Shown here piece by piece: positions 1-23,970 of a DNA stretch of 23,970 nucleotides. Positions within the stretch are counted from its first letter, which is position 1. Each line of letters starts with the position of its first letter. Position numbers and translations under genes: made by a program. The notes beneath the pieces were generated by a model that searched no databases, had not been told where the DNA came from, and was given only the letters and a program-made list of their open reading frames with translations. This DNA is from an uncultured bacterium (GTDB lineage Bacteria > Hydrothermota > UBA3073 > NMUJ01 > CBEVQO01). The DNA is taken from NCBI GenBank assembly GCA_965552055.1, contig CBEVQO010000011.1:1-23970 (forward strand). The letters are read 5' to 3'.

Positions 1-3000
1 CTTCATGCCATATCGTATCTCCAAGTATTTTATACCAGCATTTTATCTTCTTAACTTCATCGTTGAAAGAGTCGGTTACAGTGAAAGGTATGGTTACTGC
101 ATGATACTGCTCTGGTAATGTATCAGCAAGGTCAACTATTGGCTTGTGATAATTATCAACCCTAACTCTCAATATAAAATCTTCTCCCGGGTCAGAATCT
201 TTTGCAACTGCTTTAAATAAGCAATTGTACTCTACATCTGGCAAATCTATCAGTGTATGCCATGTTATTCTTCCTGTATCTCTTTGGGCGTTATAAAAAG
301 TAATTGTAACCGATGCTGTATCCCAAGTATTTCCTCCATCTATTGAATATTCACATATTATGGTATCTATAACATCTCCTTCTGGGTCATATATTCCGAA
401 TTCCATTTCAATGTCTGCTGTATCTTCGGGTAACAATGTATCTTCAAGCGTTATTGTGGGCGGCTCATTGTTATCAAGTCTGAATTGTATCGTATCTTCC
501 GGTCCCCATTTCCATTCGTCTTTAGCTCTCATCGTAAAGTAAATTATTCCTTCGTAATTTGTAACCTGAGGGTCTGCTTTTGAATCCCAATGTATCGTAT
601 AATAGCGATTCGGTTGATAATTTGTCAAAGGTTCAACAATTGTTGGACTATACCGGTTAACACCATCCAAAGAAAACCTGCATTGCAAATCTGCATTATC
701 ATAACTTATTGTGTCTCTGAGATAAAATGTTATACTAACCGTATCCGAAACTTCTCCCGTTATTGGCGTAATCTCTACTTTTTGTCCATGATAGTTATCA
801 ACATTTATCTGAACTGTATCTTCTTTTCCTGGGTCGGAATCTGCTGGTATCACTCTAAAATAAACATTATGATCGAGATTTAAGCCATCCGTCCTTGTAT
901 TCCAGATAATTGTATCTGTATCTGACTTTATCAAAGTTATTGTAGCATTATTCCAAGTTACTCCATCTTCTGAGTATTTTGCTGTTAATGTATATGCATC
1001 TCCTTCGGAATCTGTAACACAACAAAGTATTTGTATCTTTCCTGTATCCTCTGATGGTGCATACACAATTTGCGCAGATGGTGGCTGATTGTTATCAAGT
1101 TTAAAGGTAATGGTATCCCATCCACCCCATTTCCAGCCATCAAACGCTCTCACTCTAAACCACACAAACTGCTCTTTACCCGGAGCATCAACATTTGAAT
1201 GCCATGTGAAAGTACCCCAGCCAACCTGATACCATGACGATTTCGTAACCGTCGCTTCCTGATAAGTTACTCCGTCGAGTGAAAATTGACATTGTAAACT
1301 CGCGGAATCTCCCGTAGTGTCTTTCAAATTGAAACTTATCACCACATCTCCTGACTGCTCGCCAGAAGGCGTCACAAGCTCGGCAAATTGAGAATGATAG
1401 TTATCAACGACAAAACTAACTGTGTCACCCTTACCCCAATCCGCATCTTTCGGAATTACCCTGAATAAAGCATTATGTTGATAGAATAAACTATCTTTAA
1501 GTGTCATCCATATAATTGTATCTCCAATAATCGTATCTGTCGGAGTATCCCAGGTAACACCACCATCTACAGAATATTCTCTTAAGAGGTAAACTGAATC
1601 ACCTTCTGGGTCATATACATTGTAAATTATCCTTATATTTTCGATACTCTCAGGAGGCACATGAATTATTGTTACTTGTGGCGGTTCATTATTATCGAGA
1701 TGGAATTTTATCGTATCTGCTATTCCCCATGCCCATTCATCTTTTGCCCATATTCTGAAATAAACTGTATCATCAAAGCCCGAAATATCATTCTTCGATA
1801 ACCAGTGAATCGTGTAAGTAGGACCCGGATTACCTCCTTTATACCATACTGTATCTTCAATTATCGTCGCTCTATGCCATGTTCCTCCTGTGGAATATTC
1901 GCACTTTATAATATTTGAATCATTACCTGTGGTATCCACAATATAAAATTGTATCTCTACCGTATCTGTCTGCTCACCTGTCACTGGCCATATCACAACT
2001 TTTTGATTATGGAAATTATCGAGATGTACGAAAACGGTATCCCACTGTCCCGGGTCAGAATCCTTTGGTAGCGCTTTAAACAACAAAGCCCGGTATTCAC
2101 CTGTTAATCCATCTGCCCTTGTATCCCATACTATGCTATCTCCCTGTTTCACTGCATTAGTCGTTGTAAGCCATGTATTACCCGTATCGAGCGAATATTC
2201 ACAAATCAATGTAATATTATCACCTTCTGGGTCTTTTAAACTATCTATATGTATTATAACCTTACCTGTATCTTCTCCTGTTACCGGATGCAGGAAAATT
2301 GAAGGAGGTTCATTATTATCGAGTTTAAATTCAATGGTATCTGGTATTCCCCAATTCCATCTATCTTTTGCACTTATACTGAAATGCACCCATGCATCCA
2401 CACCGGGTGCATCTTCCTTCGAAAGCCAGTGAATTGTGTAAATAGGACCGGGTTTATACCAAATTGTATCTTCAACTATTTTCGCTTTCGTCCAGAAAGG
2501 TAAATTAAATGCAAACTTACATCTTATGATATTTGAATCATTGCTTGTAGTATCCGATATCTGGAACATTATAGAAACGGTATCAGATTGCTCCCCAGAT
2601 GAATCTGGTATCGTTACTTTTTGCTGATGGAAGTTATCAAGGTGAATTATCACTGTATCCCACTGTCCTGGGTCCGAATCTTTTGGTGTTACTTTGAAAA
2701 TCAATTTCCAGTATTCTTTTGTAAGATTATCAAGCCATGTATGCCATATTATACTATCTGTATGAATCGTCACAGTTGCAGTATCCCAAGTTTTTCCAGT
2801 ATCTTTTGAATATTCACAAATTAAAGTAATTGGGTCACCTTCTGAATCACTTTTTGTATATTTTATCACGACATCTCCTGTATCCTCATAAGGCACAGAT
2901 TGCAGTGTAACAACGGGCGGTTGATTGTTATCCAGTTTTATTTTAATACAATTTAAAGGTCCCCAATCCCAACCATCATGTGCTTGCATACCAATATAAA

Positions 3001-5290
3001 CAAAGCCATCAAAACCCGGTAAATCTGCTTTCGATAACCACTTTATCACATTGCCAGAATATCTCGATGTATCAAATATTGAATCTCCAATTACATGTGC
3101 ATTATACCAGTTCACACTATCTGTAGAATAAAGACATCTTATCTTCAAAGTATCCCACGAAATTGAATCATACAAATTGAATGTTATATCAACAGTATCT
3201 GTTTGCTCACCTGCTATTGGTAAAATTTCAACCCATTGCCCTTGGAAATTATCAAGCTTAAATCTCGCAGTAGATAACCATTGTCCTGTATCGCTATCCA
3301 AAGGTGTTATCATGAAGTAAACATACAAATCAGTATCGGGCAAATCTTCTTTTGATAACCATCTTATAACATTTGAGTAATTCGCAGAACCAATTCCTGC
3401 TGTATCTCCTGTAATTTTTGCTCTGTTCCATGTAGTGCTATCAAGTGAATAATAACAAATTATTCTGAGATTATCGTTTTCTGTATCTCCAAGTGTATAA
3501 TTTATAGGCACAGTATCATGTTGTTCTGATGCAGGTGTTTGTATTGATATAAGATAAGGTGGAGAATTATTGTCAAGGTGAAAGACCGCAGTATCCGAGA
3601 AACCCGTATCTGCATCCACAGGTATTATTTCAAACATAGTGTTCACCCTGTCAACTCCATCTGCATCGGATAAAGAATGCCATATTGCAAAGAAAGTATC
3701 ACCCGATATATTCCCCCATGTTACATTATTTGTAAAGTTAAATGTTATACCACCATCCACCGAATATCTGAAAGCAAAGGATAGTGGGTCATTTTCCGGG
3801 TCTTTTGCTTCAAATTTTATGGAGTCTACATCTCCTGATTGCTCTCCTGTTGGTGCCTGTATTATCGTCACACTCGGCAAACTATCATTATCAAGATGAA
3901 ATTGCCCGGTTTCATCTCCCCTTCCTTCTCCGACTTCTGCTCCTCCTTTTTCATAAGGGATTATCATAAAATTAGTGTAAATATCGGCACCGGGTAAATC
4001 GGAAATTGATTGCCATATTATTGTATCTTCCTTGATAAAATATACACTTTTAGGTGTTGAATCTATTAAAATAGTATCTCCTATTACATTTCCCGTAGGA
4101 TGCCAAACACCTCCCTGATAGTAATAGCATCTCAAAACTATGGTATCCGTTACATTATCTGTATCTCTATCCTGTACTCTGAAGAATATCTTTATATCGC
4201 CTGTTACTTCTGTATCTGCCGGTGATGTGTAATTAGGACGCAAACCAACTGCAATACCTGGCAGGTACTTATTGTTGACAAAGAAAATATTGCTCGTATC
4301 TGCTCTCCCCGTATCCTTATCTGCAATACTATCATAAGGAATGATTTTAAAAACCACCCATCCACTAGTATCTTTTAAAGTATCAGACGAGGAAAGCCAT
4401 ATTATTGAAGTATCATATCTCGAAGAGTCTAAATCCCTCGGAGTATAAAGCAATACTGGAGTGATCCAAGAACTCCATGCAGTATCACCTTCTAGTTTGT
4501 ATTTATACTTAACTATTATATTCAATGTATCGTATTCGACATCTCCCAATTTGAAAGGTATTTTTATATTTCCTGCAACATTGTTAGGTATTGCTTTGGA
4601 TACTGTACAAACAGGCGGTTTGTTTGCATCTATATGGAAAGGTCCTATTGTATCACCTTTGCCCCAATCTCTATGTAAATAGATACTATCTGAAGGGATA
4701 ACAAAGAGATAAGCTGTTTTAACATCTCTCCCAGGTATATCCTGATAAGCACTCCAGTAAAATACAGAATCATAAATCGAAGAATCAACGGCATCTTTGT
4801 TTATTGAAATGGTTGCATCATTCCATGTGACACCATCAAGCGAATATTTAACCACTATCTGTAAAGTATCCCAATCAGGGTCATGTAAGAAATATTTAAC
4901 TCTTGCGCTGTCTATTTGTTCAGAAGATATTTCTTTCAAAGAGCATAAAGGCGGAATGTTGTTATCAACATAAAATCTAAATGGTGCAGAATAATCGGAT
5001 ATATAGCCATCCCAGTTTTGCACTTTCATCCTGAAATCAACAGAATCATCAACTCCTCTTAAATTATAACTCCCACCTACTGTATTCCAGAGTATGGAAT
5101 CTGCACCCGGATATTTCCAGTCGTTATTATAAATTTGAGATGAAGTAATGGGATGCCACAAAGTATCTACTCTTTTCCTCCTGAATTGCCATGAAAATGT
5201 AATGACCAATTTATTCCTGGGGTCATGCGAAGTATAATAGATTGTTACAGTATCAGAATGACCTTTTATACTATCCACCTGAACATAAGG
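1..5290 (-). repeat. Intragenic tandem domain repeats (~16-17 units of ~300-380 bp), mostly alternating A/B types
   Basis: Linker motifs recur at ~4960 (VDNNIPP), 4625 (DANKPP), 4275 (VNNKYLP), 3890 (LDNDSLP), 3570 (LDNNSPP), 3250 (LDNFQGQ), 2925 (LDNNQPP), 2635 (LDNFHQQ), 2315 (LDNNEPP), 2015 (LDNFHNQ), 1690 (LDNNEPP), 1400 (VDNYHSQ), 1090 (LDNNQPP), 795 (VDNYHGQ), 470 (LDNNEPP) and 155 (VDNYHKP). Units carry D-x-E-G-D and YSxDGGxTW-like motifs. Confidence 0.85.
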
Positions 5291-6793
5291 AACATGAAAT
5301 CTCCTATACCATATTTTAATCCAGTTAATCTGTGGTGTGGAATCTTTATTATGTGTGTAAAACTCTATCCTGTACTGGCAATATCTATCGCCATTATTAA
5401 CAGAACTCAGTGAACTTGCTAGCCCTCCGTTTGTAGCAGACGGACAGTTTTCCCATGGAGTAGCGGTAGAAAAACTCGTATCAGGGGAAGTCCTTATTTT
5501 TATCACCAAACTACAACCAGCAGGAACATAAGCACTCCACCTTACCGTATCCCAGTAAGCAGAATCACAAGCATCAAAAATAGAAGAAATAATGTAACCC
5601 CGTGCGATATAAGATGTCTCCTGTGAAGATGATAAAAATGTAGCAACAGGCTCCGGCTGAACATATTTCCTTATGATAAAGTCATCGAAATATCCATAGG
5701 CATCATCATCCCATGAACATATACCGAATCTTTTATTACGCCAGCGAGTGTCAACAGTAGTTACTCGCAATACATAATCAGGGTCAGGAGGATTTGTCGC
5801 TTTTTGATAAATTTTAAAAGTATCCTTATAAAAGGTTATTTTATACCAGCACCAGTAATCGTCATTAAAATAATAACTGTTCACAATATAATAGCCAATC
5901 CTAGAATAAACAGGATTTCCTCCTGTCCATGCATATAAAATAATTCCACTCTGTTCGCTCCATCCAGAGGCATAAGAATGCATAATGCAATTGCCGACCA
6001 GTATCCTGTAACCATTTGCAAAATTATATCTTATATTGTTGTCATCCCACCAGCTGCCAGTCTGAGGTCTATCAACATTTGGTCCCCATTGTATCGTTCC
6101 ATCGGTAAAAAGAAAAATTCCAGTGCCTTCATAATAATTATCAGGCCTCTTTGTCCTGAATGTAATACAATATCCAAATCTATTTGGATTTAAACTGTCC
6201 TTAGCTAGTAACAAAGCAAGACCACTATCGGGACTTTCACCCCCATTATATCCAGCTATCCTCATTACTCCACCAATTTCAATTATATCCGAATATTTCC
6301 CATCGGCTTCCCACTTATTTTGCCATTCTCCATCTTCAAAATCATCAAAGAAATCAAAAACAGAATCACCACAGGACTTCGACTCTGCTCTCGGGTCACC
6401 ATAGTAAACATAAATGGTATCTGTCTCGCCAGGTAATGTAAGAGGGTCTTTTATCCATACTATCGCAGATTCACCAGCCCAATACTGCTCTATCCAGTAA
6501 TGCAAAGGAGTAAATTCATCTTCATCAAAGAACCTCAAATCACTAAAATTTGAATCCATCTGAGGAAGATAATGAATAACCACCTTCACAGGATAATCTA
6601 TTAAACTATCAGCTGAATTGTTTACTATTTCAATGCCACTTCTATACTGGAGTATTAACTGATTTTCTGTCCCTGTATCAATTGCTTCACTTTTCCAGTA
6701 TTTCGTGCGGTCATACCAGTATCTCTGCCCGGGACCCCCTTTCCAGTCGCTCTGTTCCCAGTAAAGGCTAATCGCAATGAGCAGCAGCCACAT
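1..6793 (-). CDS. Giant secreted/surface protein (>2260 aa, 3' end outside window): short hydrophobic N-terminus, DUF2341-like domain, lectin/ConA-like region, then tandem ~100-125 aa Ig-like repeats
   Basis: ATG at 6793 preceded by AAGGGGGGTGG. Manual translation begins MWLLLIAISLYWEQSDWKGGPGQRYW...FSDLRFFDED..LHYWIEQ..AIVWIKDP...IYVYYGDP..VFDFFDDFEDG (DUF2341-type). The same frame was checked at 6302, 5642, 4922, 3542, 2282, 1082, 422 and 2. It is absent from the ORF track, consistent with no in-frame stop inside the window. Confidence 0.9.
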   Translation of the reverse strand, partial: MWLLLIAISLYWEQSDWKGGPGQRYWYDRTKYWKSEAIDTGTENQLILQYRSGIEIVNNSADSLIDYPVKVVIHYLPQMDSNFSDLRFFDEDEFTPLHYWIEQYWAGESAIVWIKDPLTLPGETDTIYVYYGDPRAESKSCGDSVFDFFDDFEDGEWQNKWEADGKYSDIIEIGGVMRIAGYNGGESPDSGLALLLAKDSLNPNRFGYCITFRTKRPDNYYEGTGIFLFTDGTIQWGPNVDRPQTGSWWDDNNIRYNFANGYRILVGNCIMHSYASGWSEQSGIILYAWTGGNPVYSRIGYYIVNSYYFNDDYWCWYKITFYKDTFKIYQKATNPPDPDYVLRVTTVDTRWRNKRFGICSWDDDAYGYFDDFIIRKYVQPEPVATFLSSSQETSYIARGYIISSIFDACDSAYWDTVRWSAYVPAGCSLVIKIRTSPDTSFSTATPWENCPSATNGGLASSLSSVNNGDRYCQYRIEFYTHNKDSTPQINWIKIWYRRFHVPYVQVDSIKGHSDTVTIYYTSHDPRNKLVITFSWQFRRKRVDTLWHPITSSQIYNNDWKYPGADSILWNTVGGSYNLRGVDDSVDFRMKVQNWDGYISDYSAPFRFYVDNNIPPLCSLKEISSEQIDSARVKYFLHDPDWDTLQIVVKYSLDGVTWNDATISINKDAVDSSIYDSVFYWSAYQDIPGRDVKTAYLFVIPSDSIYLHRDWGKGDTIGPFHIDANKPPVCTVSKAIPNNVAGNIKIPFKLGDVEYDTLNIIVKYKYKLEGDTAWSSWITPVLLYTPRDLDSSRYDTSIIWLSSSDTLKDTSGWVVFKIIPYDSIADKDTGRADTSNIFFVNNKYLPGIAVGLRPNYTSPADTEVTGDIKIFFRVQDRDTDNVTDTIVLRCYYYQGGVWHPTGNVIGDTILIDSTPKSVYFIKEDTIIWQSISDLPGADIYTNFMIIPYEKGGAEVGEGRGDETGQFHLDNDSLPSVTIIQAPTGEQSGDVDSIKFEAKDPENDPLSFAFRYSVDGGITFNFTNNVTWGNISGDTFFAIWHSLSDADGVDRVNTMFEIIPVDADTGFSDTAVFHLDNNSPPYLISIQTPASEQHDTVPINYTLGDTENDNLRIICYYSLDSTTWNRAKITGDTAGIGSANYSNVIRWLSKEDLPDTDLYVYFMITPLDSDTGQWLSTARFKLDNFQGQWVEILPIAGEQTDTVDITFNLYDSISWDTLKIRCLYSTDSVNWYNAHVIGDSIFDTSRYSGNVIKWLSKADLPGFDGFVYIGMQAHDGWDWGPLNCIKIKLDNNQPPVVTLQSVPYEDTGDVVIKYTKSDSEGDPITLICEYSKDTGKTWDTATVTIHTDSIIWHTWLDNLTKEYWKLIFKVTPKDSDPGQWDTVIIHLDNFHQQKVTIPDSSGEQSDTVSIMFQISDTTSNDSNIIRCKFAFNLPFWTKAKIVEDTIWYKPGPIYTIHWLSKEDAPGVDAWVHFSISAKDRWNWGIPDTIEFKLDNNEPPSIFLHPVTGEDTGKVIIHIDSLKDPEGDNITLICEYSLDTGNTWLTTTNAVKQGDSIVWDTRADGLTGEYRALLFKALPKDSDPGQWDTVFVHLDNFHNQKVVIWPVTGEQTDTVEIQFYIVDTTGNDSNIIKCEYSTGGTWHRATIIEDTVWYKGGNPGPTYTIHWLSKNDISGFDDTVYFRIWAKDEWAWGIADTIKFHLDNNEPPQVTIIHVPPESIENIRIIYNVYDPEGDSVYLLREYSVDGGVTWDTPTDTIIGDTIIWMTLKDSLFYQHNALFRVIPKDADWGKGDTVSFVVDNYHSQFAELVTPSGEQSGDVVISFNLKDTTGDSASLQCQFSLDGVTYQEATVTKSSWYQVGWGTFTWHSNVDAPGKEQFVWFRVRAFDGWKWGGWDTITFKLDNNQPPSAQIVYAPSEDTGKIQILCCVTDSEGDAYTLTAKYSEDGVTWNNATITLIKSDTDTIIWNTRTDGLNLDHNVYFRVIPADSDPGKEDTVQINVDNYHGQKVEITPITGEVSDTVSITFYLRDTISYDNADLQCRFSLDGVNRYSPTIVEPLTNYQPNRYYTIHWDSKADPQVTNYEGIIYFTMRAKDEWKWGPEDTIQFRLDNNEPPTITLEDTLLPEDTADIEMEFGIYDPEGDVIDTIICEYSIDGGNTWDTASVTITFYNAQRDTGRITWHTLIDLPDVEYNCLFKAVAKDSDPGEDFILRVRVDNYHKPIVDLADTLPEQYHAVTIPFTVTDSFNDEVKKIKCWYKILGDTIWHE

Positions 6794-19725: not shown

Positions 19726-22158
19726 ATGAATTATGAATTTACCCAAAGGGTTCGTCGTATTTTTGATATAGCCCAGCAAGAGGCAAGGCGCTATGGCAGT
19801 GACTCTGTTGGTACAGAGCACATCTTACTCGGGCTTGTTCGTTCTCACGGAGGAGTAGCGCTTGCAGCACTATCCAACATGGGAGTTGACATAGAGCAGC
19901 TCGAGCAGGATGTAATCGAGTTTATAAGGGAAAATGTATCGGGCATTCCTGTTCCTCATGTTCATTTCAATGACGAAGCGAATCAGCTTGTGAATCTCGC
20001 AAGAATGGAAGCAAAGGATATGGGGGACAATTACATAGGCTCCGAGCACCTTCTACTCGCGATGATGAGATTCAAAGGCTCAAATGCATTTAATATACTT
20101 GCAAGACATGGAATAACTTACGAAGAAGTAAGAAACGAAATCCTTGCAGTAAGAAGGGAGCCAGATAGAAAGCATTTTGCAAAGAAAAGGGTCAAAACTC
20201 CTTATCTCGACCACTTCTGCAGGGATATAACTAAAATGGCAAAAGAAAATAAACTTGACCCTGTGATCGGAAGAGAAAGGGAAATCGAAAGAGTGATGCA
20301 AATACTGTGTAGAAGAAAGAAAAATAATCCTGCTCTAATAGGAGAACCTGGTGTCGGTAAAACAGCGATTGTAGAAGGATTGGCTCAAAGAATAGCAGAA
20401 GGTAAAGTACCACGCCAATTAATGGATATGCGAATACTGCAGCTTGACCTAGCTGCAATCGTAGCAGGAACAAAATACAGGGGACAATTTGAAGAAAGAT
20501 TAAAAGGAATTCTGGAAGAATTAAGAAGAACAGGAAATATCATAATCTTCATCGATGAATTGCATACGATTGTTGGGGCAGGAGCTGCTGAAGGTGCGAT
20601 AGATGCATCAAATATGCTGAAACCTGCGCTTGCGAGAGGTGAAATACAATGCATAGGAGCAACAACATTATCGGAATACAGGAAATACATTGAGAAAGAT
20701 GGTGCACTTGAGCGCCGTTTCCAGCCAGTTTATATTTCACCGCCATCGGTTTCCGAAACAATCGAAATATTAAAAGGATTAAAAGAAAAATATGAACAGC
20801 ATCACAATGTGGTTTACACAGAAGAAGCACTCGTTGCAGCTGCTACTCTTGCAGATAGATACATAACAGATAGATTTCTGCCTGACAAAGCAATAGATGT
20901 TATGGATGAAGCAGGAGCAAGGGTTAAGCTGGAACGCCTGCCTGCTATATCAAAAGAACTTGATAAACTTGAGAAAAAACTCGCAGAAATACAAAAATTA
21001 AAGGATAAAGCAGTTGAAGAACAAAACTTTGAAGAAGCAGCAAGATTGAGAGACGAAGGAATTAAAATTCAAAAGAAAATCAGGGAGATTAAAGAAAAAG
21101 AGGAGCAAATTGTAAAAAAAGTTACAGAAGAACACATTCGCCAGGTAATATCCCTGTGGACCGGGATACCCCTTACCAAGCTCGAACAGAAAGAGCAAGA
21201 GCGCTTATCGAAGATGGAAGAGGAACTGAAAAAGAAAGTAGTTGGTCAGGATGAAGCCATTGCAGCACTTTGCAAAGCAATAAGGCGAAACAGACTGGGA
21301 TTAAAAGACCCAAGAAGACCCGTTGGTTCATTCCTGTTCCTTGGACCCACTGGTGTTGGTAAAACCTACCTCGCAAAGAAACTTGCAGAATTTTTGTTTG
21401 ATTCAGAAGCAGCACTTATAAGAATCGATATGTCAGAGTATATGGAGAAATTCAATGTATCAAGATTAATAGGTGCACCACCGGGATATGTGGGATACGA
21501 GGAAGGAGGACAATTAACAGAAAAAGTAAGAAGAAGACCTTATTCTGTTGTATTATTTGATGAAATAGAAAAAGCTCATCCAGAGGTATTTAACATACTT
21601 TTACAGGTACTGGAAGACGGAGTATTGACCGATAGCTTCGGAAGAAATGTGAACTTCAAAAATACAATCCTTATAATGACATCCAATCTCGGGACAGAAG
21701 GGTTGAAGAAAAAATCAATAGGATTTGAAATAGAAACAGAAGAGCTACAATCCTATGAGCAAATGAAAGAAGAATTGATAGAAAAAGCCAAAAAATTCTT
21801 CAGACCGGAATTTTTGAATCGTCTTGATGATATAATCGTGTTTAGACCGCTTACAAAGGAAACGATGTTTAAGATAGTTGATATTTTACTCGATGAATTA
21901 CAGCAAAGATTGAAAGAAAGAGAAATAGAAATTGAAGTAACACAGGGAGTTAAAGAGCTTCTTGTAGAAAAAGGTTTTGACCCGTTCTATGGTGCTCGTC
22001 CGATAAGGCGTGCGATACAAACAATTATCGAAGACCCGCTTGCAGATGAAATATTGAAAACAGGATATGAAAAAGGAATAAAATTCTTATTGGAAAGAGA
22101 AGGTGATAAAGTGAAATTTATTTTGAAGAAAAGAAAAAAGGAGTTAATAAGTGCTTAA
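19726..22158 (+). CDS. clpC: ATP-dependent Clp protease ATP-binding subunit ClpC
   Basis: Two Clp-N repeats ([18 protein letters not shown]), Walker A GEPGVGKT and [17 protein letters not shown] pore loop, UVR middle domain ([13 protein letters not shown]), SIGF ClpP-docking loop and GARPIRR. Confidence 0.96.
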
Positions 22159-22354
22159 AACAACGGCGGATATTGTAAAAGATGTATCAGAAGTGACAGG
22201 TTACTCCCAACGAGATGTTAACATTATAATCCTGAAGTTTTTAGAAAAAATAAAGGAAGAACTTAAAAAAGATAAAGTTGTTGTGATAAATGGTTTAGGT
22301 GAATTTAAATTAAGCGATGATAATAAAAAAGTTATAGAATTTAAGCCAGAATAG
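22151..22354 (+). CDS. Short HU/IHF-family DNA-binding protein lacking the beta-ribbon arm
   Basis: HU-like helices (TADIVKDVSEVTGYSQRDV..II..FLEKIKEELKK), V.INGLGEF strand and terminal FKP. SD AAGGAG; GTG start overlaps the clpC stop. Confidence 0.78.
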   Translation: MLKTTADIVKDVSEVTGYSQRDVNIIILKFLEKIKEELKKDKVVVINGLGEFKLSDDNKKVIEFKPE

Positions 22355-22362
22355 GAGGAGTT

Positions 22363-22467
22363 ATGCCCTGTGGTAGAAAGAGAAAATTAAAAAAAGTTAA
22401 GCGTCATAAATATAAGAAGAGAAGGAAAGCGATGCGTCATAAGAAGAAATTCAAGGAGGGACATTAA
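22363..22467 (+). CDS. Small basic AURKAIP1/COX24-domain peptide (30S ribosomal protein bS22/mS38-like), 34 aa
   Basis: Strong SD AGGAGGAG, then MPCGRKRKLKKVKRHKYKKRRKAMRHKKKFKEGH-TAA, matching the MP.G.KRK.....HK.KKR....RHKKK family pattern. Below the ORF-track length cutoff. Confidence 0.85.
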   Translation: MPCGRKRKLKKVKRHKYKKRRKAMRHKKKFKEGH

Positions 22468-22470
22468 AGT

Positions 22471-22543
22471 GCGCCCGTAGCTCAACTGGATAGAGCGGCG
22501 GATTCCGGATCCGCAGATGAAGGTTCGAGTCCTTTCGGGCGCA
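22471..22543 (+). tRNA. tRNA-Arg (anticodon CCG), CCA not encoded
   Basis: Acceptor GCGCCCG/CGGGCGC, D arm GCTC/GAGC with A20, anticodon arm GCGGA-TTCCGGA-TCCGC (CCG at 22505-07), T arm GAAGG-TTCGAGT-CCTTT, discriminator A at 22543. Confidence 0.96.
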
Positions 22544-22550
22544 GAAAAGA

Positions 22551-23357
22551 ATGGCTAAGAAAAAGCCTTTAGGAAAGGGATTAGAAGCATTATTGCCAAC
22601 AGAGGAAGAAAATTATAAAGAAATACCCCTTAATGACCTCTTGCCCAATCCTTATAATCCAAGGGCTGACCCGGGAGACCTATCCGAACTGATAGCATCG
22701 ATAAAAGAAAAAGGAGTTATAGAGCCAATTGTAGTAAGGAAAAAAGAAGACAAATATGAAGTTGTTTGCGGTAGCAGGAGAGTAGCGGCATGTAAAGAAC
22801 TTGGTCTCGAAGTAATCCCGGCAATCGTAAAAGATGTAGATGATAGAGGAATGCTTGAATTCGCACTTATAGAAAATCTGCAAAGAAAAGATTTAAATCC
22901 AATTGAAGAAGCAGAAGCATATCAAAGATTAAATAAAGAATTTGGATTATCACATGAAGAAATCGCAGAAAGAGTAGGGAAAAATAGAGCAACCATAACG
23001 AATACGATACGCTTATTAAACCTACCTGATGAGATAAAAGAAATGTTAAAAAGAGGTGAACTTACAGAAGGACATGCAAGGGCACTTTTACAGGCAGAAA
23101 CCGAAGAAAAAATGGTAGAACTGGCACAGAGAATTTTAAAAGAAAAATTAACGGTAAGAGAAGTTGAAAAACTTGCAAAGAAAAGGGTACCAATGCCAAA
23201 AGAAGAATTTTTGATAAATATTGAAAGGAAATTTTCGGAAAATTTCGGAGTGAAGGCAAACATCAAAAAAGGGAAAAGAAGTTATAAGATTGAAATAAGA
23301 TGTAAATCTTTTGACGAATTTAAAGAATTTTTGAAAAAACTCGGTTTAGAACTATAA
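22551..23357 (+). CDS. parB: Chromosome partitioning protein ParB/Spo0J
   Basis: LGKGLEALL N-terminal peptide, NPYNPR, SIKEKGVIEPIVVR, GSRR CTP-binding patch, ALIENLQRKDLNPIEEA, HTH HEEIAERVGKNRATITNTIRLL and GHARALL. Confidence 0.95.
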   Translation: MAKKKPLGKGLEALLPTEEENYKEIPLNDLLPNPYNPRADPGDLSELIASIKEKGVIEPIVVRKKEDKYEVVCGSRRVAACKELGLEVIPAIVKDVDDRGMLEFALIENLQRKDLNPIEEAEAYQRLNKEFGLSHEEIAERVGKNRATITNTIRLLNLPDEIKEMLKRGELTEGHARALLQAETEEKMVELAQRILKEKLTVREVEKLAKKRVPMPKEEFLINIERKFSENFGVKANIKKGKRSYKIEIRCKSFDEFKEFLKKLGLEL

Positions 23358-23374
23358 AAATTTAAGGAGGGAAT

Positions 23375-23563
23375 ATGCCAGAATATGCAACAAAAGAAGA
23401 TGTGAAGAAAATAAAAGAAGAGATGTTAAAACTTGAGAAAAAATTACAGGAAGCAGAAGCAAGAAATAATGAAAGAGAAAAGCGTTTAAAAGAGAGAGCA
23501 TGGTGGGTTGGAATAGTCGTCGCTTTACTCACAACTTTAATAATGTTGTTAACAAAAATTTAA
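23375..23563 (+). CDS. Small coiled-coil protein with C-terminal TM anchor, copy 1 (62 aa; DUF1640/CCDC90/Bdr-like architecture)
   Basis: SD AAGGAGGG; YATKED motif, charged heptad helix, WWVGIVVALLTTLIMLL TM segment. Confidence 0.85.
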   Translation: MPEYATKEDVKKIKEEMLKLEKKLQEAEARNNEREKRLKERAWWVGIVVALLTTLIMLLTKI

Positions 23564-23572
23564 GGAGGGGAT

Positions 23573-23794
23573 ATGCCAGAATACGCAACAAAAGAAGATT
23601 TGATGAAGATAAGAGAAGAGACAAGAGAAGAAATAATGAAAACAAAAGAAGTAGTAATGAGACTAGAGAAAAAATTACAGGAAGCAGAAACAAGAAATAA
23701 TGAAAGAGAAAAGCGCTTAAAAGAGAGAGCATGGTGGGTTGGGATTGTCGTCGCTTTACTCACAACTTTAATAATGTTATTAACAAAAATTTAA
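23573..23794 (+). CDS. Small coiled-coil protein with C-terminal TM anchor, copy 2 (73 aa)
   Basis: Paralog of copy 1 with an 11-residue longer stalk; own SD. Confidence 0.85.
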   Translation: MPEYATKEDLMKIREETREEIMKTKEVVMRLEKKLQEAETRNNEREKRLKERAWWVGIVVALLTTLIMLLTKI

Positions 23795-23803
23795 GGAGGG
23801 GAT

Positions 23804-23970
23804 ATGCCAGAATACGCAACAAAAGAGGATTTGATAAAACTTGAGAAAAATACCAAAGAAGAAATAATGAAACTTGAGAAAAAATTGCAGGAAGCGGAAG
23901 CAAGAAATAATGAAAGAGAAAAGCGTTTAAAAGAGAGAGCATGGTGGGTTGGAATAGTCGTCGCTTTACT
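23804..23970 (+). CDS. Small coiled-coil protein with C-terminal TM anchor, copy 3 (partial, runs off window)
   Basis: ATG at 23804 after AAGGAGGGG; MPEYATKEDLIKLEKNTKEEIMKLEKKLQEAEARNNEREKRLKERAWWVGIVVAL. Not in the ORF track. Confidence 0.85.
   Translation, partial: MPEYATKEDLIKLEKNTKEEIMKLEKKLQEAEARNNEREKRLKERAWWVGIVVAL

Follow-up and report, generated by a model that had tools for sequence, protein, structure and literature searches.

A tandem array of small, predicted membrane-anchored coiled-coil proteins between parB and gapA

The array and its surroundings

The stretch of DNA analysed here, called the window, is 23,970 nucleotides long and is the entire contig C11 of genome G000, from an uncultured bacterium of the Hydrothermota. 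Its last 615 bases hold three ORFs of a tandem array, the rest of which was found at the start of contig C8 by tblastn against the genome, the C8/C11 overlap being 55 identical bases. Joined in this way, the two contigs carry five intact head-to-tail genes, each with its own ribosome-binding site, between parB and gapA. The encoded proteins are 62, 73, 66, 73 and 77 aa long. The features of the locus are as follows.

22551..23357, + strand: parB, 268 aa, the gene upstream of the array; ParB_N and HTH_ParB both pass their Pfam cut-offs, and the stop codon overlaps the first boundary repeat
23356..23380, + strand: left boundary repeat, 16 nt exact, about 25 nt including the start codon; contains the Shine-Dalgarno site
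23375..23563, + strand: copy A, 62 aa; YATKED at the N-terminus, then a stalk of pure heptads (register assigned by hand), then the invariant membrane-proximal block of 43 residues, which includes the predicted C-terminal TM helix
23554..23578, + strand: second boundary/Shine-Dalgarno repeat
23573..23794, + strand: copy B, 73 aa (+11 residues relative to A); DNA-identical to the fourth copy, C8:99-320
23785..23809, + strand: third boundary/Shine-Dalgarno repeat
23804..23970, + strand: copy C (+4 relative to A), truncated where the contig ends; its length would be 66 aa when joined to C8
23916..23970, + strand: last 55 nt of contig C11, which recur unchanged at the start of C8 and at window 23475-23529; the assembly breaks here, inside the repeat
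C8:99-320, beyond the window: fourth copy, 73 aa
C8:330-563, beyond the window: fifth copy, 77 aa (+15)
C8:574-1596, beyond the window: gapA, then pgk

The count of five genes corresponds to the shortest path through the C11/C8 join. Because C8 1-326 repeats window 23475-23800 exactly and so forms an assembly loop, five is a minimum for this assembly, and the copy number in G000 is at least 5. An earlier note on the window had described at least three head-to-tail cassettes, each with its own Shine-Dalgarno motif. This is borne out, since the ORFs at 23375-23563, 23573-23794 and 23804->23970 all lie behind AAGGAGG, and a recount agrees with the 19, 30 and 23 residues that had been placed ahead of LEKKLQ. 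Followed rightwards, the copies continue on C8 to a total of at least five, and gapA-pgk closes the array. The supposed invariance of MPEYATKED holds in part: YATKED is present in all copies, but residue 2 is Ala in the last G000 copy and in four of the five second-strain copies. Likewise, the proposed stalk steps of +4 and +11 both exist, but steps of +7 and +15 also occur.

A second strain, with flanks 98% identical, was found as two metagenome contigs. One (L012) runs in a single piece from parB through four complete copies (62, 73, 69 and 69 aa) into part of a fifth; the other (L013) shares 102 nt with it, one of them mismatched, and runs on into gapA. The second-strain array thus comprises five open copies of 62, 73, 69, 69 and 77 aa. 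In both strains, the first (62), second (73) and last (77) lengths are alike, the middle differs, and there are four lengths among five copies. Since this strain carries five copies with a different middle, an assembly artefact is ruled out. In addition, contigs from public runs X1-X4 cover the array and contain further stalk variants. In run X1, contig depth is 39.6 over the conserved block against 6.9-10.4 over single-copy flanks, which fits some 4-6 copies, though such depths do not measure copy number.

The first array gene begins 17 nt past parB, and gapA follows 10 nt after the fifth copy; the coupling to gapA-pgk on the downstream side is no less tight than that to parB upstream. Beyond pgk come four PaREP1 paralogues and an endonuclease IV-like gene. 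PaREP1 was assigned by Pfam; gapA, pgk and nfo were recognised from their sequences. A scan of 22100-23970 gave four promoter-like sites, against 4.8 expected, and 0 terminators. None of the parB loci of 17 relatives has an array-type gene or gapA beside parB. Given this and the equally tight coupling to gapA, the specific tie to ParB entertained in the earlier note is not upheld.

The parB gene has no adjacent parA, and a Soj/ParA-like ORF lies on another contig (C7:14390-15142). parB is unlinked from parA in several same-class relatives, and the two genes are together in more distant members of the phylum. Between clpC and parB (window 22151-22544) are found an HU-like gene (Pfam), a short, very basic ORF at about 22364-22468 and tRNA-Arg(CCG). 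The basic ORF resembles the bS22/AURKAIP1 type. At the other end of the window (2-6793, - strand) a very large, secreted-looking protein of more than 2264 aa, cut by the contig start, contains many imperfect repeats.

Protein design and family

In each array protein, three residues precede the YATKED motif, after which come a charged stalk and then, at the C-terminus, a single hydrophobic stretch (mean hydropathy 2.2; residues 53-71 in copy B). This predicted membrane helix lacks any charged residue. An AlphaFold2 single-chain model of copy B, built on a nine-row alignment, is one helix spanning residues 7-72 (pLDDT 76, pTM 0.31). Foldseek comparison of this model with the PDB gave 0 matches, a lone helix being an uninformative query, and sequence searches of the PDB returned generic coiled coils only, with no match below E 0.02.

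One study (PMC4786415) gives the beta-layer consensus of DUF3782 and DUF1640 proteins as [aliphatic]-A-T-K-[polar]-[DE], indicates that beta-layers can cap the N-terminus of trimeric coiled coils, and explains periodicities of 4, 11 and 15 residues. In its table, the N-terminal layers of MPN010 and SadB begin, as YATKED does, with an aromatic residue. Together with the modelled helix and the single C-terminal hydrophobic stretch, this supports the prediction, already made in the earlier note, of a headless neck-stalk-anchor design, that is, a beta-layer followed by a stalk and an anchor.

The idea that the length changes are of the stutter and hendecad kinds that coiled coils tolerate also stands. 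Read by hand from the beta-layer onward, all five variants keep an unbroken hydrophobic seam of heptads and hendecads, so the array lengths preserve the register. The distances from the motif to QE in the array and in distant relatives (14, 18, 21, 25, 28, 29, 32 and 36 residues) are whole helical turns. No set out of 60,000 random ones was as coherent in phase, and the array alone gives P 5e-4; it should be noted that the lengths are not independent and that this test does not separate selection from slippage in an already periodic sequence. Because slippage would give the same pattern, the result speaks for coiled-coil compatibility more than for selection for diversity.

No Pfam family, DUF1640 and XhlA included, lies above its cut-off for the array genes, and nothing in NCBIfam, PHROG or PADLOC exceeds the curated cut-offs for the array proteins. 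The best weak rows (SH3_and_anchor, E 3e-6; phrog_7090, E 4e-5) are generic coil-plus-anchor matches. Single family members give weak PHROG holin or hemolysin rows, and the PADLOC defence library yields chance-level Csm2 and pAgo rows only. A word-indexed search found matches in the source species only. Using an exhaustive profile search, one true relative was recovered (P0004; E 1e-5, 97% profile probability), together with four longer ATKxD proteins (E 8e-5 to 1e-3), one of them named as CCDC90 family. Iteration brought the relatives to ten (P0004, P0012-P0020), of 58-107 aa, two of them labelled Methanosarcinales archaeon. These ten share KxxQE, ERxK and ER motifs and a membrane helix, and six of them keep the N-terminal motif. 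In the membrane-proximal half, conservation of polar residues extends to the archaeal homologues.

The array family was found in 0 of 30 relatives' whole genomes, in 0 of 271 other genomes of the phylum searched and, on the archaeal side, in none of two further samples of 400 genomes, one drawn from the class and one from the phylum of the archaeal genome G272. Pattern scans of GTDB gave 0 loci with the array alignment and one with the family alignment. Viral contigs, phage records and plasmids scanned hold no homologue. In a Bathyarchaeota genome, a distant single-copy homologue is flanked by two integrase-like genes, of which one has a Pfam E of 8e-6, just under cut-off, and the second was judged by eye. 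The family is thus rare, unnamed and patchy, and occurs in a bacterium and in archaeal genomes.

The Bathyarchaeota locus (L018:2181-7675) has the appearance of an integrated element; besides the family homologue and the two integrase-like genes it carries a 348-aa ORF. This ORF is without Pfam match, and its HxH motif hints at a rolling-circle Rep.

Several known systems resemble the array proteins. DUF1640/CCDC90-like proteins (MempromCC) also have an ATKxD-type beta-layer, from which a coiled-coil stalk leads to a single C-terminal membrane helix; in the array that helix is predicted, and the first residue of the motif is aromatic (Y) instead of aliphatic. The MempromCC architecture, reportedly set out by Adlakha et al. 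in 2019, has an N-terminal head domain before the neck. In contrast, the array proteins are headless, only three residues preceding the motif, and they have their own KxxQE, ERxK, ER signature and a five-gene tandem arrangement. Searches of the whole library gave weak matches to P0007, named as CCDC90 family (E 9e-4), and to P0006, which has the same 11-residue stalk repeat, and a profile comparison of the array family with P0007 gave 4% probability. Within G000, PF07798 (DUF1640) leaves the array unmatched and hits two other loci, below cut-off. Membership of DUF1640, which the earlier note had raised, is not supported, as the array has neither a PF07798 match nor a head domain.

XhlA (PF10779) likewise is a headless coiled coil of about 60-80 aa with a C-terminal membrane helix (predicted in the array). 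According to PMC10630273, XhlA accompanies holins in phage lysis cassettes. The array differs in lying in a chromosomal housekeeping operon, next to parB and gapA-pgk and without holin or endolysin nearby, and in having no homologue in the phage collections scanned. PF10779 does not match it in the own-genome search at E<=0.01 or in Pfam scans, and has weak matches at other G000 loci; the comparison with XhlA that had been suggested therefore finds no support in that family's profile. In a language-model Atlas, the array protein lies closest to clusters of unnamed phage proteins and to an XhlA cluster (0.91, with 173 of 256 features shared; 0.88 in a second comparison). We treat this proximity as a lead only.

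Borrelia Bdr paralogues vary in internal repeat number, carry a C-terminal membrane anchor and are encoded by genes dispersed over plasmids. As far as these general features go, the array proteins are similar in their variable internal repeats and C-terminal anchor, but they are much shorter and form one chromosomal tandem array. No Borrelia-family Pfam match appears among the weak matches listed (the best 25 of 41 families), which does not bear out the likeness to Bdr as membership. A literature search, mostly of papers outside subscription, found nothing on the array family or on headless arrays. On balance, we regard the family as a previously undescribed, headless form of the beta-layer/stalk/anchor design, whose genes make up an array of an ordinary kind.

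Origin and maintenance of the array

A 16-mer containing the Shine-Dalgarno site occurs at six exact sites in the 2.2-Mb genome, all of them in the array (window 23356, 23554 and 23785; C8 80, 311 and 554). This boundary word precedes all five copies and gapA, hence n+1 occurrences, and also encodes the last two codons and the stop of each array gene. The extended repeat is about 25 nt, including the start codon, with one indel and two mismatches. Since the word is found n+1 times and only at the array, insertion with target duplication followed by amplification is suggested. An empty parB-gapA allele was found in none of four relatives' gapA loci and none of 17 parB loci, all from distant relatives without parB-gapA adjacency, and the only close strain also carries the array. 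Insertion is for this reason deduced from the repeat alone. The array was likely acquired as one gene and then amplified.

A comparable process is described in PMC2853133, where restriction-modification genes insert with long target duplication and amplify through the repeats, with a duplication threshold of 30 bp. The array similarly is flanked by a direct repeat unique to its site and has expanded into tandem copies. However, its repeat, 16 nt exact and about 25 in total, is below that threshold, and its cargo is a membrane mini-protein. No integrase or transposase was recognised among the ORFs neighbouring the array.

Comparison of the copies bears on what happened next. Nine complete copies from the two strains were compared over the C-terminal block, whose 43 codons run from LEKKLQ to the stop; the incomplete third copy and the incomplete fifth copy of L012 were excluded. 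Their differences comprise 14 synonymous and 2 replacement changes. With a synonymous site fraction of 0.22, pN/pS between copies is 0.04 (binomial P 6e-8; 3e-6 when transitions are given five-fold weight). The membrane-proximal half is under purifying selection, in agreement with the earlier observation that DNA differences in this block are mostly synonymous, the named synonymous pairs being present. A four-gamete test on ten copies gives 21 failures among 45 pairs of informative sites. Copies differ by 6.25/120 nt within a strain and by 6.36/120 nt between strains. These two results indicate exchange between copies, and the description of the array as prone to recombination fits the four-gamete failures.

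Together, these observations can be placed in a tentative scenario. One horizontally acquired gene would have landed on the ribosome-binding site of gapA, and its insertion would have duplicated about 25 bp of the gapA translation-start region. Unequal crossing-over between boundary repeats may then have built the array, and gene conversion may keep the anchor half alike. Slippage between internal 7- and 11-residue repeats would alter stalk length, only in-register lengths surviving.

The genome contains many arrays of this general kind. A crude count over 2246 ORFs gave 18 runs of adjacent small paralogues, two of which are the halves of the five-gene array. At least 16 other small-paralogue arrays thus occur in G000, including PaREP1, Uma2, DUF5618 and aspartyl-protease-like families (Pfam) and, presumably, nucleases with a coiled coil. 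Examples lie at C8:2787-4298, C5:102871-104054, C2:89129-90619, C2:170643-172378, C4:142545-145180 and C8:10077-10837. Many are wedged inside housekeeping operons, and several share the start codon and the next few bases with the downstream host gene, suggesting that start-codon microhomology may be the usual array junction. By eye, the first gene of many arrays lies a few bases behind TTGACA/TTGACT and TATAAT-like boxes and has no Shine-Dalgarno motif (C8:10837, C2:372982, C2:431631, C5:116532, C7:35160, C10:62540, C3:258615). To judge from these letters, this looks like leaderless transcription.

Possible functions

Our preferred account, to which as a whole we give a probability of about one half, its functional step standing lower, is that one acquired and amplified gene supplies abundant membrane-anchored trimers working through the invariant membrane-proximal half. 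Because a signal peptide is lacking and basic residues lie just before the helix, the proteins would be tail-anchored with the stalk in the cytoplasm. They would form trimers in which the YAT layer caps the tip. Free mixing of the chains, whose anchors are identical, would by calculation give 8.8% of trimers with stalks of one length. With so few of them and a headless tip, the dosage of stalk plus anchor, and not precise rulers, is most likely what is selected. That both strains keep four lengths among five copies, with the first, second and last alike, despite recombination argues against dosage and fits selection for length diversity.

As their likeliest activity, the trimers may act as an XhlA- or DUF1640-like accessory membrane protein in conflict with phages or mobile elements or in envelope stress, binding a partner at the membrane surface. 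PMC2701414 describes solo PaREP1/HEPN and Uma2 paralogue cassettes of thermophiles, predicted to be nucleases or toxin-antitoxin-like. Arrays of the PaREP1/Uma2 type occur in the array's own operon and genome. The likeness is that small mobile accessory genes are expanded as paralogues; unlike these cassettes, the array product is a predicted membrane coiled coil. A conflict or stress role is favoured because such neighbours and the mobile context suggest it. Against a role in conflict, no defence-library or phage homologue was found in the libraries scanned.

Other explanations can be weighed against this one. The conserved lengths at the first, second and last positions, with four lengths among five copies in both strains and all of them in register, would also be expected of a selected repertoire of rulers, spacers or decoys that are anchored in the membrane, have separate targets and reach about 5 to 8 nm (estimated at 0.15 nm per residue). 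We consider this unlikely, though it heads the alternatives: three residues before the beta-layer leave no binding head, mixing through identical anchor halves should leave only about 9% of trimers uniform in length, the two strains differ freely in their middle copies, and slippage alone explains the lengths. A more specific version carries the same low credence, namely a recombination-tuned repertoire of headless trimeric rods, in which co-assembly through invariant anchors and stalks differing by one to four turns would set tip reach or stagger. If it were true, the array would be a length-coded decoy or spacer system, transferred between vent bacteria and archaea and carried on a highly expressed glycolytic operon.

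Somewhat less credible is an XhlA-like protein, domesticated from a mobile element, that permeabilises membranes, as a holin helper or a triggered abortive-infection pore oligomerising through identical TM helices. Its size and layout are those of XhlA; the Atlas neighbours (0.91; 0.88), the weak holin and hemolysin rows for single members and the company XhlA keeps in phage lysis cassettes (PMC10630273) point the same way. Nevertheless, the PF10779 profile misses the array in both kinds of search, neither holin nor endolysin is nearby, the membrane helix is uncharged, and a constitutive pore is hard to reconcile with five gene copies that have strong ribosome-binding sites and lie in a glycolytic operon. 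We place lower again the notion of a nearly neutral operon passenger, tied to gapA translation and regenerated by recombination, from which selection removes only misfolding or frameshifting changes. The extreme sporadicity of the family and the abundance in G000 of accessory-gene arrays inside housekeeping operons (16 others) would agree with it. However, the flanking direct repeats would permit clean deletion, yet two strains keep five intact copies and other public runs also hold the array, and the membrane-proximal polar residues are conserved as far as the archaeal homologues. A membrane tether for ParB or the chromosome partition machinery is very improbable. It would account for an array 17 nt behind a parB that has no parA beside it, with no terminator-like site in between, but no such gene stands beside parB in 17 relatives, the 271 other phylum genomes searched miss the family, the 8-kb locus of the Bathyarchaeota homologue has no parB in its ORF list, and the boundary repeat ties the array to gapA.

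As predicted here, the family strips the head-neck-stalk-anchor design to a minimum of cap, stalk and anchor, and may be useful for asking what headless DUF1640/XhlA-like proteins do. It also offers a natural series of coiled coils that differ by 4, 7, 11 and 15 residues on an identical anchor, of use for stutter and hendecad rules. Finally, the array illustrates clearly how housekeeping operons may take in accessory genes and let them multiply, the newcomers borrowing the translation start of the next gene. Its weight is limited because such arrays are common in G000 and its role is a prediction from sequence.

G000 has other genes for a coiled coil with a C-terminal membrane helix, which no Pfam family explains (L038-L043; C2:287067, C4:134761, C1:355848-356869, C7:35160-36079, C9:38637, C3:69341). 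They vary in stalk length; several have a VTKEE or VTREE beta-layer motif, two form tandem pairs, and one is apparently headless.
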